IMG/VR virus record: IMGVR_UViG_2737471818_000008
Origin: a virus
Taxonomy: Duplodnaviria; Heunggongvirae; Uroviricota; Caudoviricetes
DNA: 15,982 bases
Reading direction: 5' to 3' (one strand)
Part shown: piece by piece, positions 2,826 through 15,982 of the stretch
Position numbering within the stretch: position 1 is the first letter of the stretch
Layout of the letters: the number at the start of each line of letters is the position of its first letter
Position numbers and translations under genes: made by a program
The notes under the pieces: generated by a model
Told to the model about the DNA's origin: nothing
Seen by the model: the letters and a program-made list of their open reading frames with translations, nothing else
Database searches by the model: none

Positions 2826-2953
2826 CTGGTTGCGTATACAGTAGTAGACTTTGAGCGACGAAAGAAAAGGCTGTGTCTAGGGTCGCTCCCGAAAATCCGT
2901 ACACCTCGACGGACTGGTACAGCCACTACAGTAGAGGACGCTGAGGTGTGCGT

Positions 2954-3751
2954 ATGATTGATATTCATGCCGAATTAAACGAATACAAAAAAGATTTTAT
3001 TTCTTTACGTGAATTTCTTGAGGTCGTGCTTAAGGTCGCTGGTGATGATTATGATGTTTCAGATGTCATAACTTGGATACTCAGGAGAATAAGCGGAGAA
3101 CATATCCGCCTGTACACAGTAAATGAATTTAAGCTGTTGGAATCTTTTTGTAACCCGTATCGGGATGAATTTGATTATGATGTTCTTTATAGAAATCTGA
3201 ATGCGGTTCGGAAACGTGGTTGTTTACCTGGTGAGAGGGATGAAAATGGTTTTCTGGTGTCCGGTTATTGGGAAGATCCCGAATTTGAGAACATTGGATT
3301 TATAAGGGGTGAAATTTTCGCAATTTTTCCCGATGTCCTTGACGCGTTAACGAAGCTGGAAGGCGCTAACTCTTCTGAAAATGACGAGGCACAAGGACGC
3401 GATATTGAAAAGAAAGAGTTGCGTACAGAGGATGATTTATTATCCCAAATCGCAATGCTGGAAAAAGAAAACGCAGAGTTAAGGGCAAGGATAGAGCAGT
3501 TAGAGCAAGAGCGCCCGATACACTTATATAAATACTGGGATAAAGACCCATTAGCTAAGGCTATTGAGATTAGAAACAGAGAGTGGGCCAATTACGATCC
3601 AGAAAATGATTTTGCCACCAGGGGAAATCAAGAAGCGATAACCAGGGAGCTTAAGCAGTGGGGGGCAAGTAATGCACTTGCAACGCTCATAGAGAGGACT
3701 GCCTGCCCTATTAACCGAGACAACAGCCAAAAGAACGCAAAGCCGGATTAA
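2954..3751 (+). CDS. Hypothetical protein with a coiled-coil segment; AT-rich orphan cargo gene between int and alpA
   Basis: ORF with ATG at 2954 and GAGG 7 nt upstream (the ORF track begins at GTG 2948). Visibly more AT-rich than the flanking int and alpA. Heptad-like stretch LLSQIAMLEKENAELRARIEQLEQER. No catalytic motif recognised. Confidence 0.6.
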   Translation: MIDIHAELNEYKKDFISLREFLEVVLKVAGDDYDVSDVITWILRRISGEHIRLYTVNEFKLLESFCNPYRDEFDYDVLYRNLNAVRKRGCLPGERDENGFLVSGYWEDPEFENIGFIRGEIFAIFPDVLDALTKLEGANSSENDEAQGRDIEKKELRTEDDLLSQIAMLEKENAELRARIEQLEQERPIHLYKYWDKDPLAKAIEIRNREWANYDPENDFATRGNQEAITRELKQWGASNALATLIERTACPINRDNSQKNAKPD

Positions 3752-3765
3752 CGCACCATACCGCA

Positions 3766-3910
3766 TACCCTGAGGATGATTTACTGTTACCCTGAGGGTA
3801 TTTTTTTATCTTCCCCGTCAATTTTACCATCACCCTTAGGGTAGATTTCCTCCCGATTACCATCACCCTTAGGGTTAATTTCCTTCCGGTAACCATTAGG
3901 CCTGAGGGTA
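3766..3910. repeat. Array of palindromic TACCCT-N-AGGGTA motifs including two 27-bp direct repeats, upstream of alpA
   Basis: Seen directly: TACCCTGAGG (3766-3775), TACCCTGAGGGTA (3788-3800), ACCCTTAGGGTA (3832-3844), ACCCTTAGGGT (3865-3875), CCTGAGGGTA (3901-3910). The 27-bp units TTACCATCACCCTTAGGGTAGATTTCC (3824-3850) and TTACCATCACCCTTAGGGTTAATTTCC (3857-3883) differ at 2 positions. Confidence 0.6.
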
Positions 3911-3978
3911 TGAAAATATTCGTTATTTCTGTGCCATGATTACCTCGTCAAATTGAGTAGACGTTATGAGGTAAATAT

Positions 3979-4253: not shown

Positions 4254-5054
4254 ATGAAATTTCCAAAAACGCCCGTACAGGGGCGGGGCTTCGTTCGGCC
4301 TGAAAACCAGAATCTGCAAAATTTCGGCGAAATTATCCCGATTATTTCCGGCGTTATTGGCGGGAGTGAAACCACTATTGTTAGCGCCAGAGCGTTACAT
4401 AAGGCGTTAGGTGTAGGGCGCGTTTTCCGTTCGTGGATCAAGGGGCGCATTGAAGAATACGGGTTCACGGAAGGCGTGGATTATGAGGTTGTTGAATATT
4501 TGAGCCGACCCGATCCGGTGAGCGCAAAATCTCGCCAGCAAACCGCTCTTGAGTACATCATCACAGTGAACATGGCGAAAGAACTGGCGATGGTAGAACG
4601 CACCGAACAGGGGCGCGCCGTTCGTCAGTACTTCATCAAATGCGAGGAAGAGCTACACAAGGTTGCGCCTGTACGTTCCGCAGCGTTACGCCGGGAACTG
4701 AAAGCCCGTATCACAGTTGCCAGCTACTTTAAGCCAATGTGTGCCGCGCTGGAGGCGTACCGGGCTGAACTGGGTAAAAACACTCTACAGCACCACTACA
4801 CCACGGAAGCCAATATGCTGGCGCGTATCGTGCTGGGTGGCATGACTGCAAAACAGTGGGCGCAGGCGAACGGCATCACAGGCGAACCACGCGACCACAT
4901 GAGCACGTTGCAGCTTGAGCACCTTTCTTACCTTGAGCAGAGCAATATCACGCTGATTGAGTTAGGCCAGGACTACCACCAGCGGAAAGCTGAATTAATT
5001 CGCCTTTCGCAGCGTTGGTTAGCCCGTCGCATGGAGGAAAACAGCCATGTGTAA
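4254..5054 (+). CDS. Phage antirepressor-like protein (AntA/ORF6N-type N-terminal domain)
   Basis: 266-aa ORF with CAGGAG upstream. The N-terminal stretch SARALHKALGVGRVFRSWIKGRIEEYGFTEGVDYEVV matches the pattern I associate with AntA/ORF6N antirepressor N-domains. The domain assignment is from memory and needs an HMM search. Confidence 0.6.
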   Translation: MKFPKTPVQGRGFVRPENQNLQNFGEIIPIISGVIGGSETTIVSARALHKALGVGRVFRSWIKGRIEEYGFTEGVDYEVVEYLSRPDPVSAKSRQQTALEYIITVNMAKELAMVERTEQGRAVRQYFIKCEEELHKVAPVRSAALRRELKARITVASYFKPMCAALEAYRAELGKNTLQHHYTTEANMLARIVLGGMTAKQWAQANGITGEPRDHMSTLQLEHLSYLEQSNITLIELGQDYHQRKAELIRLSQRWLARRMEENSHV

Positions 5055-6348
5055 CGCTCTGACCGTTACAAAAAGAGAAAGCGCCCCGTTGCCGGAGCGC
5101 CTTTGTGAACGAATAGCCTACTGCGCCATATTGCTTACTGTCTACGGGGCAGATTATAGCGTTGTGGTCGCACAGAGTGAAGGCGCTGATCACCGTTTCT
5201 ACAGCACGCCGGAAATGCAGAATATTTTGCTGCAAAATGCCGTTGGTCACGCCGTCCGGAAAGCAAAAAATTTTGCTGGTGGTGCGACCGATACGATTTT
5301 GTCAGGTCGCCAGGTGCTGATTAATCTGATGTCTGATTTCGTTCTGGATAAAACAAAGGCGACCGCAGAGGGCCGCCAGTGGGAAAGCTACATACTTGAA
5401 CGCATCGCCAACAATGCCAGATTTGCGGCTGGTGGACAATGTGTCAGCTTTGCACCAATGACTCTATGTTTAACTGAGGGTCATTATGGTGAATATGCTG
5501 GCTTGCTGGTGGGCTATTCCTGCTCTTTAACATTGCCATGCCGCGATGTTTTCCAGGTATGCGATCCCATTTTTGTGCGCCTGTACTCTTTAAGGAATTG
5601 CTCAAGGGCAAAAGCACATGGCGCGAATCTTTCTGATTCATGCTCTATCTTTCTGCGCCGTCTTTTCCGTGCCGGTGATGGTGTATTGGTTGATTCTTTG
5701 TTGGTCATGGCGCTGCCCTGTAAAACGATGCACCGTAGTTCCTCACACCACGGCGCTGGTGATGGTTACTCCTGTTCTTTGGCCTTGCGGCGCTGGCGGT
5801 ATTCAACTTCTCGCTTTAATGCTGCTGTTACAAACTGCCCTGTACTTTCACCAGGCATTTTTACCGCCTCAACATTGTTCATAACTTCATGCGGAACCCT
5901 TGCCGCAACTGTTTGTGATTTTGCGTTTACTGCTTTTGTCGCCATGTTGTGTACCCCTTACAAAAAACAAATGCAGTATGCAGGAAAAAAAATAAGTGTT
6001 CAACACTTGACGTGTTTAACACCTGGACTTAAATTGGTGTTCAACACCTTGTTGATGCAAGGTGCAGAAACGACAACGCCCCGCAGTGGTGGCACACATG
6101 CAGGACGTCTAACCACCAACGATAGCAAGAGTATCGAGGTAGCTATGAGAAATCATACCACACACCCGCAAGGGCGGGACTCGCACAACCTGAATAAATA
6201 CATCTGGCGTTTTATCGCCCTGAGCACGGCACAACCGCGCGTAATTCACATCGAGGCCACCAGCGAACAGGAAGCACGCCAGCAATCTCCTGATGGCTGC
6301 GTGATGGTATTCGCCGCCCGTATTCGCCAGGAGGTGGAACATGTGTAA
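5047..6348 (+). CDS. Hypothetical protein; only the 5' ~140 codons look coding. The 433-codon ORF is probably a chimeric read-through across an antisense gene, an intergenic operator region and a separate in-frame small gene
   Basis: Start ATG overlaps the stop of the upstream gene (ATGTGTAA). Codon usage over about 5047-5470 looks like normal coding sequence. Beyond that the translation becomes Cys/Ser/Thr-rich and crosses an operator/promoter cluster at 5996-6047. No in-frame stop exists before 6348. Confidence 0.25.
   Translation: MCNALTVTKRESAPLPERLCERIAYCAILLTVYGADYSVVVAQSEGADHRFYSTPEMQNILLQNAVGHAVRKAKNFAGGATDTILSGRQVLINLMSDFVLDKTKATAEGRQWESYILERIANNARFAAGGQCVSFAPMTLCLTEGHYGEYAGLLVGYSCSLTLPCRDVFQVCDPIFVRLYSLRNCSRAKAHGANLSDSCSIFLRRLFRAGDGVLVDSLLVMALPCKTMHRSSSHHGAGDGYSCSLALRRWRYSTSRFNAAVTNCPVLSPGIFTASTLFITSCGTLAATVCDFAFTAFVAMLCTPYKKQMQYAGKKISVQHLTCLTPGLKLVFNTLLMQGAETTTPRSGGTHAGRLTTNDSKSIEVAMRNHTTHPQGRDSHNLNKYIWRFIALSTAQPRVIHIEATSEQEARQQSPDGCVMVFAARIRQEVEHV
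5766..5945 (-). CDS. Small ribbon-helix-helix-like DNA-binding protein (59 aa), candidate repressor of the divergent promoter; not in the supplied ORF track because it is under 60 aa
   Basis: Hand-translated from the minus strand: MATKAVNAKSQTVAARVPHEVMNNVEAVKMPGESTGQFVTAALKREVEYRQRRKAKEQE. AAGGGG lies 8 nt upstream of the ATG. The pattern is strand (TVAARV), helix, loop, helix. Three palindromic operators lie immediately upstream. Confidence 0.4.
   Translation of the reverse strand: MATKAVNAKSQTVAARVPHEVMNNVEAVKMPGESTGQFVTAALKREVEYRQRRKAKEQE
5996..6047. promoter_or_regulatory. Divergent promoter/operator region: three GTGTT(C/T)AACAC palindromes overlapping a sigma70-like promoter
   Basis: Seen directly: GTGTTCAACAC (5996-6006), GTGTTTAACAC (6012-6022), GTGTTCAACAC (6037-6047). 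TTGACG (6007-6012), a 17-bp spacer, then TAAATT (6030-6035) forms a plus-strand promoter with operators flanking the -35 and overlapping the spacer and the region just downstream of the -10. Confidence 0.55.
6145..6348 (+). CDS. Small protein (67 aa), possibly Icd-like host cell-division inhibitor family; first gene of the rightward operon
   Basis: In-frame ATG at 6145 with GAGG 6 nt upstream, downstream of the operator/promoter cluster. MRNHTTHPQGRDSHNLNKYIWRFIALSTAQPRVIHIEATSEQEARQQSPDGCVMVFAARIRQEVEHV resembles my recollection of Icd-like small proteins in P4-like prophages. Unverified. Confidence 0.4.
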   Translation: MRNHTTHPQGRDSHNLNKYIWRFIALSTAQPRVIHIEATSEQEARQQSPDGCVMVFAARIRQEVEHV

Positions 6349-6565
6349 TGCAACATGGCCTGATGCAGCGGTAGACGCTATCAAAACGCTGATGGATTCA
6401 CTTATTGAGATTTCTGCTATCGCTGGTGTGGCGCATAAACACGCAGCCAGAGAATCAGAATGCATCTCCCATTATTTAGCATTTGTGCAGCTAAAAGCCG
6501 ATCAGGCACTGGATAAGGCCGGAAAAATTATCATGGCTGATGTGCAGGAGGTGCACCATGCATAA
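6341..6565 (+). CDS. Hypothetical small protein (74 aa)
   Basis: ORF with AGGAGG 9 nt upstream of the ATG. Start overlaps the preceding stop (ATGTGTAA); first of a chain of overlapping small genes. Confidence 0.55.
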   Translation: MCNATWPDAAVDAIKTLMDSLIEISAIAGVAHKHAARESECISHYLAFVQLKADQALDKAGKIIMADVQEVHHA

Positions 6566-7346: not shown

Positions 7347-7637
7347 ATGAAAAAGAAAAATTCTGGCTTTACTGCCAGCGGCCTCTCTCGGCCTGAAATC
7401 CGCCCCGGTGATATTTTCCGGGACACCAGACGCGGGGGACGGGTGGTTATTCGTCACGTTACGCCAGGCAATATCACCTACCGCCGTGAGGCTTACGAAT
7501 ATGACTGCGTAATGCCGCGCCGTCAGTTTGATCGTGATTTTATTCTGGTGGAAAACAAACAACAGGCAGTGGCGAGACGTGCAGCCACGAATATTAAAAA
7601 AATCCGGGCAATGTTGGTTGCGGGAGGTAAGAAGTGA
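7347..7637 (+). CDS. Hypothetical basic protein (96 aa)
   Basis: ORF immediately after the previous stop; its stop overlaps the primase GTG start (GTGA). Confidence 0.6.
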   Translation: MKKKNSGFTASGLSRPEIRPGDIFRDTRRGGRVVIRHVTPGNITYRREAYEYDCVMPRRQFDRDFILVENKQQAVARRAATNIKKIRAMLVAGGKK

Positions 7638-9439
7638 AAAACGCACCGAGTCTAAAATATCAGCCGAAGGATAAATTCACTGAGGTAATCATTTTTGCCG
7701 GGACGGATGCTTACGCCCATGCTCAACACTGGATTGAAAGTGAAGGACGAAAACACGGCGATAACGTGCCTCCTGTTTACCTGGGGCCAAAGCAACTGGC
7801 AGACCTGGCGAATATCCGCATTATTGACGAGAAACGCCGTTTTGCGCGTGTCTATATCGCGGGGGAGATAGAGCCAATCCAGATCAATACTATCGCTGAA
7901 AAGCTGGCGCTGGCTGGCGTACAGGAGGCGAAATTATACAAAGGTATCACCGACCAGGAACCGGAGAACTGGCGCGACTACCTGCAACGGATCCGCGAAC
8001 AGGCTGAGCACGGGGAAGTTTCAGTGATGAAATTAGCTACAAAAAATAGTGGTCTACCCAAGCCTGCATTAAATCAGATGGGAGCCAGCCAGAGAGGGGA
8101 GGTGTTACTTGAACATTATGGAGGAGCACTGGCGATAAATGATGATTCTGATGTAGTTCACCATTACAACGGAATTGTTTGGGAGCCTGTATCTGATAAA
8201 GAACTCCAGCGGTCTATGGCGAAGATTTTTATTGATGCCGAAATTAGTTATTCGCAAAACGCCATTAAATTTGCCGTAGAGACAATGAAATTGAGTCTAC
8301 CTGTTATGGGGGGAGCGGACAGAAATCTTATTGGGTTCAGTAACGGTGTTTTTGATATCAGGACAGGAAATTTTCGGGAACACAACAAAAATGACTGGTT
8401 GTTAAATGCCAGTGAATTACCGTTCAGCCCGCCAGAAGAGGGGGAAACGCTGGCAACACATGCGCCGAATTTCTGGAAGTGGTTGCGTCGTTCGGTGGCG
8501 GATAATGCTCGTAAAGCGGATCGCGTACTGGCGGCATTATTCATGGTACTGGCGAACCGGTACGACTGGCAGTTATTCCTTGAGGTAACGGGGCCGGGCG
8601 GAAGCGGTAAAAGTGTGATGGCGGAGATTTGTACCATGCTGGCGGGTAAGGCCAATACAGTATCGGCGAGCATGAAGGCGCTGGAAGACGCGAGGGAACG
8701 AGCGTTAGTGGTAGGATATTCTCTGATTATCATGCCTGACATGACCCGCTACGCAGGTGATGGTGCTGGGATTAAGGCCATTACAGGCGGTGACAAGGTG
8801 GCTATCGATCCGAAACACAAAGCGCCCTATTCCACGCGCGTTCCTGCGGTAGTGCTGGCAGTAAACAATAATGCCATGTCATTCAGCGACCGTAGTGGGG
8901 GGATCTCGCGTCGACGAGTGATATTTAATTTCTCTGAGGTTGTACCAGAGAACGAACGCGATCCGATGCTGGCGAAAAAGATAGAAGGGGAACTGGCCGT
9001 AGTGATTCGCCATTTGCTTACACGATTTGCCGACCAGGACGAAGCGAAAAGACTACTTTATGAGCAGCAAAAATCAGAAGAAGCACTGTTAATAAAGCGT
9101 GAAGGTGATTCGCTGGTGGACTTCTGCGGTTATCTGATGTCGTTGGTTAAATGTGAGGGGATGATAGTAGGTAATGCAGAAATAGTGCCATTTAGCCCGA
9201 GGCGATATCTGTATCATGCTTATTTGGCTTATATGTCTGCGCATGGTCTGGGAAAACCGGTATCACTGACACGCTTTGGTACAGATATGCCAGGGGCAAT
9301 GGCTGAGTACGGAAAGGAGTACAAGCGGGCTAAATGCACTAAAGGTCCAGATAAAGGGCGAACGATCACAAATGTTCTGTTAGATAAAGATGCTGATGGA
9401 TGGTTACCAGCAGCGGCAGGCATTAACGACAGAACATGA
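7634..9439 (+). CDS. Phage/plasmid primase, P4 family (primase-helicase with C-terminal NTPase domain)
   Basis: 601-aa ORF with GTG start and GGGAGG upstream. Walker A GPGGSGKS and a downstream Walker-B-like acidic motif; overall architecture typical of P4 alpha-like / PICI pri-rep proteins. An iteron array follows immediately. Confidence 0.88.
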   Translation: MKNAPSLKYQPKDKFTEVIIFAGTDAYAHAQHWIESEGRKHGDNVPPVYLGPKQLADLANIRIIDEKRRFARVYIAGEIEPIQINTIAEKLALAGVQEAKLYKGITDQEPENWRDYLQRIREQAEHGEVSVMKLATKNSGLPKPALNQMGASQRGEVLLEHYGGALAINDDSDVVHHYNGIVWEPVSDKELQRSMAKIFIDAEISYSQNAIKFAVETMKLSLPVMGGADRNLIGFSNGVFDIRTGNFREHNKNDWLLNASELPFSPPEEGETLATHAPNFWKWLRRSVADNARKADRVLAALFMVLANRYDWQLFLEVTGPGGSGKSVMAEICTMLAGKANTVSASMKALEDARERALVVGYSLIIMPDMTRYAGDGAGIKAITGGDKVAIDPKHKAPYSTRVPAVVLAVNNNAMSFSDRSGGISRRRVIFNFSEVVPENERDPMLAKKIEGELAVVIRHLLTRFADQDEAKRLLYEQQKSEEALLIKREGDSLVDFCGYLMSLVKCEGMIVGNAEIVPFSPRRYLYHAYLAYMSAHGLGKPVSLTRFGTDMPGAMAEYGKEYKRAKCTKGPDKGRTITNVLLDKDADGWLPAAAGINDRT

Positions 9440-14233: not shown

Positions 14234-15982
14234 GTGAAAATATCTTTTTTTGGCGTAAATAACTTTAGGACAATATCAGGTGGCATTGGTAATAATAGAA
14301 TAATATTTAAAGATAGCAATACGCTTTTCATTTACGGGGCAAACAATGCTGGAAAATCAACTTATTTAAAAGCATATATGTTTTTTTACAGTAATGAAAA
14401 ACCTATCATTGATGATTTCTTTAAACGAGACGACAATAATTCTATTGAGTTTGAATTAGAAGTTCAACTTGATGACTTGGATAAAGAAAGAATAGAAGCC
14501 AAAGCACCGAAGCAAAAGGAAAGTTATAAGAAGTATTTAAATAATGATTTTATTAGAATTAAGAAAGTATGGAGTAAAAATGGAACAAGAATAGAGGATA
14601 AAAATTATACTTATGATTATAGTAAAGGAGATAGCGGCGAGTATGATGAAGTTGGATATGCAACGATTGGTTTGCATCAGGTCTTCCAATCTTGTTTGCC
14701 AAAACCTGTATTTATAAAGGCTATGCCAACAGAGGAAGAAGCTAAGAAGATTCTTAATGAAATCCTAAAGATGATGGCTGAAAATACACTTAAAACATCT
14801 GATCTTGATGAATTAAAAGCAGCTCAGAATAAAATAAAAGAATTACAAGACAAAATGTATGATCCAGAATTGATTGAGACCTATCAGAATTCAGTTAACG
14901 GATACTTTAACAAGATATTCGGTGATACTGCTATATGCTTCAAAGATCAAAAAGATAGGGTTGTTTGGACGGAGAATAAGCTTGGCAGAGATTTTGAAAT
15001 TGAGTTTATGAAAAAAAATAGCCAAGGGGAGTTTGATGGCAATATCCCTTCAAGTTATAGCAGTGTAGGTCATGGAACTATTAGGACTGCAATATTTACA
15101 TTATTATTGATGAGAGATGTAGCAGAGCGTTTTGAAAGAAGGCTTGGACGTAAGGATTACATGGTTCTGTTTGAGGAGCCTGAGCTATTTCTCTATCCTA
15201 GAATGGTGAAGGAACTTCGTGAATTGATTTATCAGGTGAGCACTGAAGACCTTCCATATCAAGTACTTTGTGCCTCACATTCATCTTCCATGATAGATCT
15301 TTCAAAGCCTAAATCTTCGATAATACGATTAGTTAATAATTCTACTGGAACTAAATCATATCAAATTAATGATCAATTTTTGAAGGATGCAAAAGGCATT
15401 GCTACAAATGCTGAACTTAAACAAGAAATGTATGAAGTTTTGAGGTTTAACCCTTATATTTGTGAATCATTCTACGCTGATGAGGTGCTTCTGATTGAGG
15501 GGCCAACAGAAGAAATAATATGTAGAGCTTTTTTACAAGAAACCCCATCAGATAAATCTATATTCGTATTGAACTGTGGTACGGTTAATAACATTCCTTT
15601 TTATCAAAAAATCTTCTCAAGGTTTAATATAAAATATCATGTGATCTGTGATACAGATAAAGCAGAAATAGTTACCGTAGATCAATCTGGCAATGCAGAT
15701 TTTGATTCTGGAATACAGAAAACAATTTCAGAACAGTATAGGAATGATTGTACTGCAATGAATGGTAATATAGGACTACTTCGAACTCATAACATTACAT
15801 TTGAACCTGCTCATCAGGATGTTAGTATTCCTGACTTTTTGAGATTTGTTGATTGCGGTGATAGAAGCAAACCATTTAATGCAAACTTGTACTGGAAGGA
15901 TATTTTAAGGCCAAATATATCACATCAAGATATAAATAAAGTGCCTATAATTAAGTATTTGAATGAAATAATAGCACATTAA
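14234..15982 (+). CDS. OLD-family ATP-dependent nuclease (N-terminal ABC-type ATPase plus C-terminal TOPRIM domain); class 1 OLD or Gabija GajA-like; candidate anti-phage defence protein
   Basis: 582-aa ORF with GTG start and AAGGAAA upstream, in strongly AT-rich DNA. Motifs read directly: Walker A GANNAGKST (near 14336-14362), Walker B MVLFEEPELF (near 15161-15190), H-loop-like ASHS, TOPRIM glutamate LLIEGPTEE (near 15491-15517) and DxD ICDTDK (near 15644-15661). Size matches P2 Old and GajA. Confidence 0.85.
   Translation: MKISFFGVNNFRTISGGIGNNRIIFKDSNTLFIYGANNAGKSTYLKAYMFFYSNEKPIIDDFFKRDDNNSIEFELEVQLDDLDKERIEAKAPKQKESYKKYLNNDFIRIKKVWSKNGTRIEDKNYTYDYSKGDSGEYDEVGYATIGLHQVFQSCLPKPVFIKAMPTEEEAKKILNEILKMMAENTLKTSDLDELKAAQNKIKELQDKMYDPELIETYQNSVNGYFNKIFGDTAICFKDQKDRVVWTENKLGRDFEIEFMKKNSQGEFDGNIPSSYSSVGHGTIRTAIFTLLLMRDVAERFERRLGRKDYMVLFEEPELFLYPRMVKELRELIYQVSTEDLPYQVLCASHSSSMIDLSKPKSSIIRLVNNSTGTKSYQINDQFLKDAKGIATNAELKQEMYEVLRFNPYICESFYADEVLLIEGPTEEIICRAFLQETPSDKSIFVLNCGTVNNIPFYQKIFSRFNIKYHVICDTDKAEIVTVDQSGNADFDSGIQKTISEQYRNDCTAMNGNIGLLRTHNITFEPAHQDVSIPDFLRFVDCGDRSKPFNANLYWKDILRPNISHQDINKVPIIKYLNEIIAH

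Follow-up and report, generated by a model that had tools for sequence, protein, structure and literature searches.

A modular protein gene, phased dyads and a leader RNA as a probable exchangeable control cassette in front of alpA in Gram-negative phage-inducible islands

In this work, we analysed a 15,982-nt stretch of viral DNA (IMG/VR record IMGVR_UViG_2737471818_000008, Caudoviricetes), which is called the window throughout, and in particular the gene that lies between the integrase gene int and alpA of the island that it carries (positions 2954-3751, here gene X). In IMG/VR, the window corresponds to contig UViG_2737471870_000008. Judged by its gene layout, the island is most simply taken to be a Gram-negative phage-inducible chromosomal island (PICI). 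A sequence-only reading had described X as an AT-rich orphan in a variable cargo slot and as a candidate for an accessory or defence function. What had been observed was largely correct, but the interpretation as foreign cargo or defence is not supported. The comparative sequence data indicate that X, the phased dyads behind it and the leader RNA in front of it make up an exchangeable control cassette 5' of alpA, and the X family is previously undescribed; a search of the literature found no paper describing X. We consider the chances roughly even that X is a DNA-binding regulator of the alpA induction switch. Induction of Gram-negative PICIs is activated by AlpA (PMC6092414, PMC11773190); the helper phage is described as turning on alpA by way of an inducer whose identity is unknown, and whether a repressor exists was called unclear (PMC6092414). 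Island reviews place int and alpA in an ‘integration zone’ and leave a gene between the two unmentioned (PMC10111431). The features of this region are as follows.

1611-2825: P4-type tyrosine integrase (int)
2870-2937 (68 nt), plus strand: match to Rfam RF02996, ‘int-alpA RNA’, score 45.5 bits (gathering score 35.8), E 8e-7
2874-3957, plus strand: exchangeable cassette of leader RNA, X and dyad array, the segment replaced in the sister island L002
2954-3751, plus strand: X coding sequence, ATG at 2954 to the stop at 3751, 265 aa plus stop
2954-3370, plus strand: N-terminal domain of X, residues 1-139, alpha/beta, acidic (isoelectric point, pI, 4.5), AlphaFold confidence (pLDDT) 82-93
3428-3511, plus strand: leucine zipper, residues 159-186, one long helix in the model
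3512-3727, plus strand: C-terminal domain 1, residues 187-258, a small four-helix domain, the proposed DNA-binding module
3767-3777: dyad 1, ACCCTGAGGAT, one mismatch to ACCCTnAGGGT, perfect in the sister copies
3789-3799: dyad 2, ACCCTGAGGGT, inside TACCCTGAGGGTA followed by T7, also flagged as terminator-like by a scan
3832-3842: dyad 3, ACCCTTAGGGT, in a 33-bp tandem unit
3865-3875: dyad 4, ACCCTTAGGGT, centre 108 bp before the alpA ATG
3899-3909: degenerate dyad 5, GGCCTGAGGGT, abutting TATGAAAAT, read from the sequence
3940-3974, plus strand: alpA leader hairpin, in which the anti-Shine-Dalgarno sequence UUACCUCGU pairs with the Shine-Dalgarno region AUGAGGUAA
3979-4176, plus strand: alpA, the proposed controlled gene, Pfam Phage_AlpA 2.4e-19

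The borders of the cassette were given by a comparison with the sister island of APEC E123 (L002), which is also inserted at thrW. In blastn, the similarity between the window and L002 stops at 2873 and restarts at 3958, and outside this segment the integrases are 99.5% identical, the primases 94.8% identical, and AlpA is the same except for S2A and T4S. The slot had been suspected to vary between syntenic thrW islands while int and alpA are conserved, and this is what was found. Instead of X, the block in L002 holds a type-2 protein and a spacer that has no ACCCT half-site but AATGGTGG/CCACC repeats, the last of which abuts TATAAAT. Among 25 non-redundant type-2 and type-3 spacers, ACCCT half-sites number 0-1; the type-2 repeats are GGTGG/CCCACC abutting TATAAAT, and the type-3 repeats are TTCCA/TTCCCAAA, including those of an independent tRNA-Arg island (L181), with the type-3 loci having been collected using single-protein queries. 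Because AlpA, Int and primase are near-identical in L002, which has different repeats, the repeats follow X and not any of these three proteins. AlpA as the dyad binder (its helix-turn-helix, HTH, is identical in L002), integrase arm sites, and primase iterons or an origin were all rejected for this reason, as L002 has no dyads. The swapped block encodes no protein other than X, and within X, the sequence comparisons suggest that the repeats go with the C-domain rather than with the N-module. The most economical reading of a zipper upstream of the C-domain, an 11-bp dyad and the pairing of repeat and C-domain type is that zipper-dimerised C-domains bind the dyads.

The int-alpA position is thus variable across related elements, as had been proposed. 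It is occupied by X (type 1), by type-2 proteins (L002/L003), by type-3 proteins (L004/L181) or by DUF6387 proteins (L178/L180), or it is empty (EcCIMP1/L005 and L179). The DUF6387 proteins occupy the slot in O157:H7-type islands; their genes lie just 5' of alpA, encode 283-293 aa (2529-3380 in L178, from O157:H7 EC4115; 2409-3290 in L180) and are followed by a perfect 14-bp inverted repeat of their own (CCGCTTTGAAATAC/GTATTTCAAAGCGG). In strain cq9, an identical X, spacer and alpA stand behind a 66%-identical integrase at a tRNA-Gly site. EcCIMP1_002, which is called ‘UvrB-like’ in the literature, was considered as a counterpart of X and rejected: it is a different small open reading frame (ORF), and the 427-bp int-alpA gap of that island holds no X homologue.

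The spacer between the X stop codon and alpA is 227 bp long and contains four dyads and the degenerate one. Allowing at most one mismatch, ACCCTnAGGGT occurs four times in the window compared with 0.19 expected, and all four sites lie within 3767-3875. The block around dyad 5 is conserved in other loci as CCCTCATGCCTGAGGGTATGAAAAT or CCATTAGGCCTAATGGTATGA, and in most type-1 loci of the tabulated set, 106-108 bp separate the last good site from the alpA ATG. Positions 3824-3896 form a tandem repeat with a 33-bp unit and one dyad per copy, and as the copy number varies between strains (2.2 in the window, three in cq9 and one in L044; L001 20799-21058), the number of operator-like sites is polymorphic. 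In the type-1 spacers of the Enterobacterales, ACCCT/AGGGT half-sites occur at 18-57 per kb compared with 0.2-2.6 elsewhere in the same loci, dyads are enriched 20-40 times over the remainder of each locus, and the remaining spacer sequence is unalignable between genera. The gaps between neighbouring sites (21-24, 32-33, 42-44 and 54-55 bp) correspond to 2, 3, 4 and 5 helical turns; over 16 distinct gap patterns, the mean resultant length was 0.81 at a period of 10.5-10.7 bp. A reverse search of 2.9 million IMG/VR contigs for two dyads 10-40 nt apart returned 49 stretches, in 33 of which a C-domain-1 gene lies at most 86 bp from the dyads, while three more start at the dyads and come from contigs already known to carry X.

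The dyad sequence changes with the protein. In Pasteurellaceae and Orbaceae, its counterpart is ACTATnATAGT, 11 nt after the stop codon, and in Photorhabdus there are hybrid sites such as ACTATCAGGGT. This drift tracks the C-domain subfamily: proteins with TR[GA]NQ occur with ACCCT almost exclusively, and the PSQ/PTQ, PKA and TRPTQ subfamilies with ACTAT or hybrid sites. The dyads persist whether the N-terminal part is full-length or missing, lies in an ORF of its own or is replaced by an unrelated domain. The existence of hybrid dyads suggests that the half-sites are read independently and do not act as RNA hairpins. RNA hairpins or terminators were rejected as an explanation, since the stems have only 4-5 bp and the hybrids are not self-complementary.

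X is also strictly tied to alpA. In 86 of 86 loci (58 non-redundant), which were found through the protein in species-representative genomes and IMG/VR, the C-domain-1 gene has an alpA homologue as its immediate co-directional neighbour downstream, at a distance of 27-293 bp. In a locus that was found through the DNA dyads (L164), alpA lies 2.7 kb downstream in the same operon; there, the C-domain-1 gene (5476-6252) and three to four ACCCTnAGGGT-type dyads (6259-6350) head an operon of unidentified ORFs and a Rha-family gene, with alpA (9125-9307) at its end. The integrase gene precedes X in the Enterobacterales, and in the Pasteurellaceae, it is found inverted at the far end of the element, so that the conserved linkage is that of X with alpA and not that of int with X. 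At least six copies of the X-alpA-primase arrangement were observed on five contigs of one assembly, Pasteurellaceae bacterium Macca (L018-L022, L025).

The term orphan does not hold for this gene. A word index gave 43 homologues, and a profile search of 1.84 billion representative proteins gave 125 representative clusters at E<=1e-3, with the C-domain-1 clusters belonging to Enterobacterales, Pasteurellaceae and Orbaceae. Of 5426 complete E. coli genomes, 148 carry X (at 99% identity or more in 141), the protein identical to that of the window (P0001) stands for 336 member sequences, and 21 X loci were found among the species-representative genomes scanned, across three families/orders. No X homologue was detected by tblastn in 50,697 GenBank phage records. 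The conserved part is the last ~70 residues, DDDPLxLAIEIRNxEWxxYDPxNDxxTRGNQxAIxxELxxxGFSxxQAxAIExVACPIxR, and in all full-length-domain matches, C-domain 1 lies within 20 residues of the protein C-terminus, usually with a zipper before it. The window protein shows all three traits of the family, i.e., a zipper followed by the C-domain, alpA as the next gene, and ACCCT/ACTAT-type dyads between the two.

The N-terminal part varies much more. It is a domain like that in X, an unrelated domain or a separate upstream ORF, or it is absent, as in proteins of 64-153 aa. The N-domain of X (N-domain A) is also fused to C-domain type 3 (FAGKDTALxIIAGLAxAL...; P0097, P0100 and P0105), and a second N-module (TxEQAAxxxAG) is joined to C-domains 1, 2 and 3 (P0036, L002/L003 and L004, respectively). 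The type-2 C-domain appears to be a remote homologue of type 1 (hhalign probability 89%, E 2e-6). From these alignments, the family is modular, with an exchangeable N-module that is shuffled among three C-domain types. A Pfam scan of 101 members found no recurrent known domain; single members carry odd N-domains, namely a LacI-type periplasmic-binding domain (4e-31), Peptidase_S74 (2e-18) and the effector-associated domain EAD9 (5e-5).

In at least seven lineages, including Orbaceae, the N-module is a split ORF just 5' of an ORF for the zipper and C-domain (L006 4651-4971, L007 4920-5369, L008, L015, where it ends at 4428, L049-L060 and L065). The split ORF ends in [MIL]DFDDDIPF*, and the next one begins with MAGWGQP or MSGWGQS. 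We take DFDDDIPF to be the C-terminal protein-docking tip of the E. coli single-stranded DNA-binding protein (SSB). An annotated island SSB in L003 ends in ...FSDDIPF, and the fused X of the window has no such tail. The tail of the split N-module could possibly be an SSB-tail mimic or bait.

Gene X starts with GAGG 8 nt 5' of its ATG; an alternative GTG at 2948 would add two residues. The protein is acidic overall (pI 4.7). A structure prediction and fold search that had been proposed for X was carried out: an AlphaFold model built on 25 homologues resolved the N-domain, the zipper and a helical C-domain, and the fold search found no relative of the C-domain. The N-domain terminates in a widely shared motif (WxDxxFxxxGFxxxEIxxIFP) and is followed by a disordered acidic linker at residues 140-158 (four K+R, six D+E). 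The coiled coil that had been read from the sequence is present at about residues 159-186, with leucines at every d position (Leu162/169/176/183) and an asparagine, Asn173, in an a position. Across the family, L169 and L183 never vary, L176 hardly does, and the Asn belongs to the consensus. This zipper is predicted to form a parallel dimer. The signature of C-domain 1 is W..YDP...Q.AI..EL...G.S..QA.AIE.VACPI.R. In a single pair (the window X and L046), the ratio of non-synonymous to synonymous substitution rates (dN/dS) was 0.45 overall, 0.92 for residues 1-95 and 0.18 for the C-domain.

In agreement with the statement that X has no recognisable enzymatic motif, searches of Pfam, NCBIfam, PHROGs and PADLOC with the whole protein and with isolated C-domains gave only sub-threshold coiled-coil matches. 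No enzymatic, membrane or defence signature was seen in these family libraries, the Pfam and family searches showed no recognisable HTH in X, and a PDB sequence search with the family profile and the C-domain returned coiled-coil noise only. No Pfam, PDB or fold relative was found for C-domain 1. PADLOC-DB 2.0 gave zero families at E<=1 for X, whereas the same search matched the gene at 14234-15982 to Old at 5e-63. X has no basic region, and its score against Pfam bZIP_2 is 15.0 bits compared with a cut-off of 22.3.

Two RNA elements frame the protein gene. The RF02996 match, a structure of an outer stem around two hairpins, begins 45 nt past the int stop codon, at the left border of the exchangeable cassette, and its 3' end is 17 nt from the X start codon. 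Of 13 genome loci, 11 have it 5' of X, and in L180 it precedes the DUF6387 gene; at the gathering score, it is absent from type-2, type-3 and empty loci. It is likely a leader or terminator-like element of X. At the other end, the stem of the alpA leader hairpin was found in the minimum-free-energy fold. Compensatory changes preserve its pairing in each of the three cassette types (UUACCUCGU/AUGAGGUAA, CACCUU/AAGGUG and AUAUACCUC/GAGGUAUAU), and a hairpin occurs at the matching position in L002, L004, L006-L014 and L091-L121. By itself, the hairpin is not statistically unusual (z 0.2), and its support is the conservation across loci; this conservation suggests that alpA may be gated translationally by masking of the Shine-Dalgarno sequence. 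Taken as a whole, the int-alpA interval looks like a dense regulatory region and not a cargo bay.

If X is such a regulator, repression with an N-terminal sensor is most likely the mechanism. The parallel zipper would dimerise X and set two C-domains side by side, and the pair would read the compact ACCCTnAGGGT dyad; the placement of a zipper with an a-position Asn immediately before the C-domain fits an 11-bp dyad. As the four to five dyads are spaced by whole helical turns, several dimers could line up along the same face of the helix, covering the alpA promoter or lying beside it. The exchangeable and fast-evolving N-domain would receive a signal, probably a helper-phage or host protein. 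X would be made together with int in the quiescent island, and alpA would remain silent until a helper phage relieves the repression. A much broader proposal is possible but doubtful in our judgement, namely that a large class of Gram-negative satellites has in X its missing master regulator, with a novel DNA-binding domain that is dimerised by the zipper before it and keeps alpA off by coating phased dyads, and with an N-module that serves as bait for helper-phage or host proteins. Under that proposal, the SSB-tipped split variants would detect phage proteins that dock on SSB, and the cassettes (types 1-3 and DUF6387) would set which helpers induce a given island.

Several observations weigh against X as the regulator of alpA. 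The coding region of the C-domain and the spacer are adjacent, and their co-occurrence could reflect inheritance as one block. The C-domain is unlike any known DNA-binding fold and has a near-neutral charge in X, and the dN/dS values rest on one sequence pair. A sigma-70 promoter scan recognised no promoter in the spacer, so the sign of the regulation is a guess. AlpA was reported to activate its own promoter (PMC6092414), and despite this, the alpA promoter regions of the window and L002 differ. Moreover, EcCIMP1, whose slot is empty, still shows helper-dependent induction of alpA (PMC11773190). Because empty-slot islands (EcCIMP1 and that of strain 83972) still respond to a helper, X is not a universal switch but an optional layer or one of several alternatives.

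Another explanation, which we hold to be unlikely, is that X is a protein-protein adaptor: its C-domain would dock onto a conserved partner (RNA polymerase, a host factor, Int or AlpA), with the N-domain contacting a target from the phage or the host; the dyads would then be read by another factor, e.g., a helper-phage regulator that activates alpA, and would travel with X by adjacency. The acidic character of X and a C-domain that resembles no known DNA-binding fold are consistent with this, the ACPIxR tail, invariant at the C-terminus, could serve in docking, the split N-module ends in an SSB-type tip, i.e., a protein-docking motif, and a helper induces alpA even without X (PMC11773190). However, the type of C-domain follows only the repeats and not AlpA, Int or primase when the window is compared with L002, X is the sole protein of the swapped block, the geometry of the dimer matches the symmetry of the dyad, and the drift of the half-sites parallels the C-domain subfamilies.

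The accessory anti-phage, anti-defence or superinfection-exclusion role from which the work started now appears improbable. It would explain why the slot content differs between otherwise near-identical elements and why the N-terminal part is shuffled and evolves fast (dN/dS 0.92), as a phage-facing surface would; one distant member matches EAD9, and islands of the EcCIMP1 type provide a superinfection immunity that is so far without explanation (PMC11773190), although EcCIMP1 lacks X. Against it stand the lack of a PADLOC match, of an enzymatic or membrane feature and of any homologue in the 50,697 phage records, the strict tie of X to alpA across orders, and phased dyads and a leader RNA that are typical of a control region. 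A gene that draws on a common pool of N- and C-modules, has alpA next to it in 86 of 86 loci and is swapped together with its own repeats and leader RNA gives no support to a reading as independent cargo. The argument from composition is weak as well. The GC content of X (0.415) is below that of int (0.473) and antA (0.532), so that the AT-richness relative to these two was rightly noted, but it is similar to that of alpA (0.429) and the X-alpA spacer (0.419), and at third codon positions, alpA is lower (0.30) than X (0.39). In GC content, X is not foreign relative to alpA. The element genes range from 0.32 to 0.58, and the clear compositional outlier of the window is the OLD-family gene at 14234-15982 (0.32), which is its evident defence gene. 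We find very little probability left for an architectural role, in which X and the dyads would form a nucleoprotein complex as a recombination directionality/excision factor or as an origin/iteron binder. Repeated sites phased on one DNA face would suit such a complex, and the array lies in the ‘integration zone’ by int and alpA, with AlpA relatives acting as excisionases (PMC10111431). Yet the array is 2.3 kb from the tRNA attachment (att) core (1428-1437), Int and primase are near-identical in L002, which has no dyads, the origins of such islands are reported downstream of pri (PMC10111431), and in L164, the gene and its dyads head an operon in the manner of a promoter-operator.

The remaining features of the window are the following.

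Left end: proA, cut by the window edge
1369-1444: tRNA-Thr(CGT)
1428-1437: att core TCCTATTATC, the same core as reported for EcCIMP1
4254-5054, plus strand: AntA-domain protein of the Bro zone (antA), next to alpA
After antA: an unidentified 433-aa ORF, several small ORFs and DUF4222
7634-9439: D5-type primase-helicase
3' of the primase-helicase: ProQ/FinO, PerC and DUF2213 proteins
14234-15982, plus strand: OLD-family ATPase/Toprim nuclease, cut by the window end, PADLOC Old 5e-63

This is the layout of Gram-negative PICIs: int, alpA and primase in one direction beside a tRNA att site, without structural or lysis modules. The insertion site, thrW, is that of EcCIMP1 (PMC11773190). The OLD-family nuclease, which also has GajA/AriA-like matches, lies at the 3' accessory end of the island. 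In islands of this kind, the 3' end is the usual zone for accessory and defence genes. Residues 171-255 of the AntA-domain protein match the PADLOC candidate-defence model PDC-S22 (5e-10). C4 antisense RNA and isrK, the P4-type immunity RNA pair, occur in related islands (L003-L007, L009, L014, L015, L026 and L179) in the Bro zone 3' of alpA; neither was found in the window at the gathering score, despite the similar overall layout.

By analogy, the closest functional counterpart of X would be Stl, and the closest evolutionary one the exchange of immunity cassettes among lambdoid phages. Similar to Stl/Rpr of the staphylococcal pathogenicity islands (SaPIs) and Gram-positive PICIs, X is encoded beside int, belongs to a divergent modular family and is placed to control the early or induction operon; one DNA-binding part, one variable part that senses helper-phage proteins and a role in keeping the island silent until a helper arrives are proposed for it. 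However, Stl has an N-terminal Xre/cI-type HTH, whereas X has no recognisable HTH and its candidate module is C-terminal, after the zipper. Stl is also divergent from the operon that it represses, whereas X is co-directional with alpA and its repeats lie between its stop codon and alpA. The two share no sequence or fold relationship, and the regulated gene here encodes an activator. As in lambdoid immunity cassettes, a putative regulator and adjacent repeated operators are swapped en bloc (2874-3957 compared with L002), and several alternative ‘specificities’ exist; the two differ in protein families, operator sequences and layout, with the sites of X lying 3' of the gene toward alpA and not between divergent promoters, and X lacks an SOS-cleavable domain.

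One X homologue was named ‘bZIP transcription factor’ by the NCBI annotation pipeline. Basic leucine zipper (bZIP) factors indeed share with X a parallel zipper with Asn at a, next to the proposed DNA-reading part, and a compact dyad target, but X is acidic N-terminal to the zipper, where it has no basic region, and the candidate reader is a folded four-helix C-domain. Closer to the island itself, the type-2, type-3 and DUF6387 proteins take the same slot, are similar to X in size (196-293 aa) and have inverted or direct repeats of their own between them and alpA. N- or C-modules are common to X and types 2 and 3, and the DUF6387 loci have the int-alpA RNA leader in common with it; they differ in their C-terminal domains and repeat sequences, and DUF6387 has no detectable sequence relation to X. 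RF02996 was catalogued as a structured RNA from the same intergenic context; it is an RNA motif of unknown function, and in the loci examined, it stands directly 5' of X or DUF6387 and not of alpA.

Gram-negative islands move virulence and defence genes and are being engineered as delivery vehicles. How they are silenced and how a helper switches on alpA can now be tested on a defined 1.1-kb cassette, in which phased dyads and a hairpin that may mask the alpA ribosome-binding site accompany a modular protein and its leader RNA, and which is exchanged between near-identical islands and conserved from E. coli to Pasteurellaceae. If X does not bind the dyads, the strictly conserved arrangement of gene, dyads and alpA would still need an explanation. 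If it does, it would represent a new DNA-binding domain and would offer a handle on the helper specificity of these islands.

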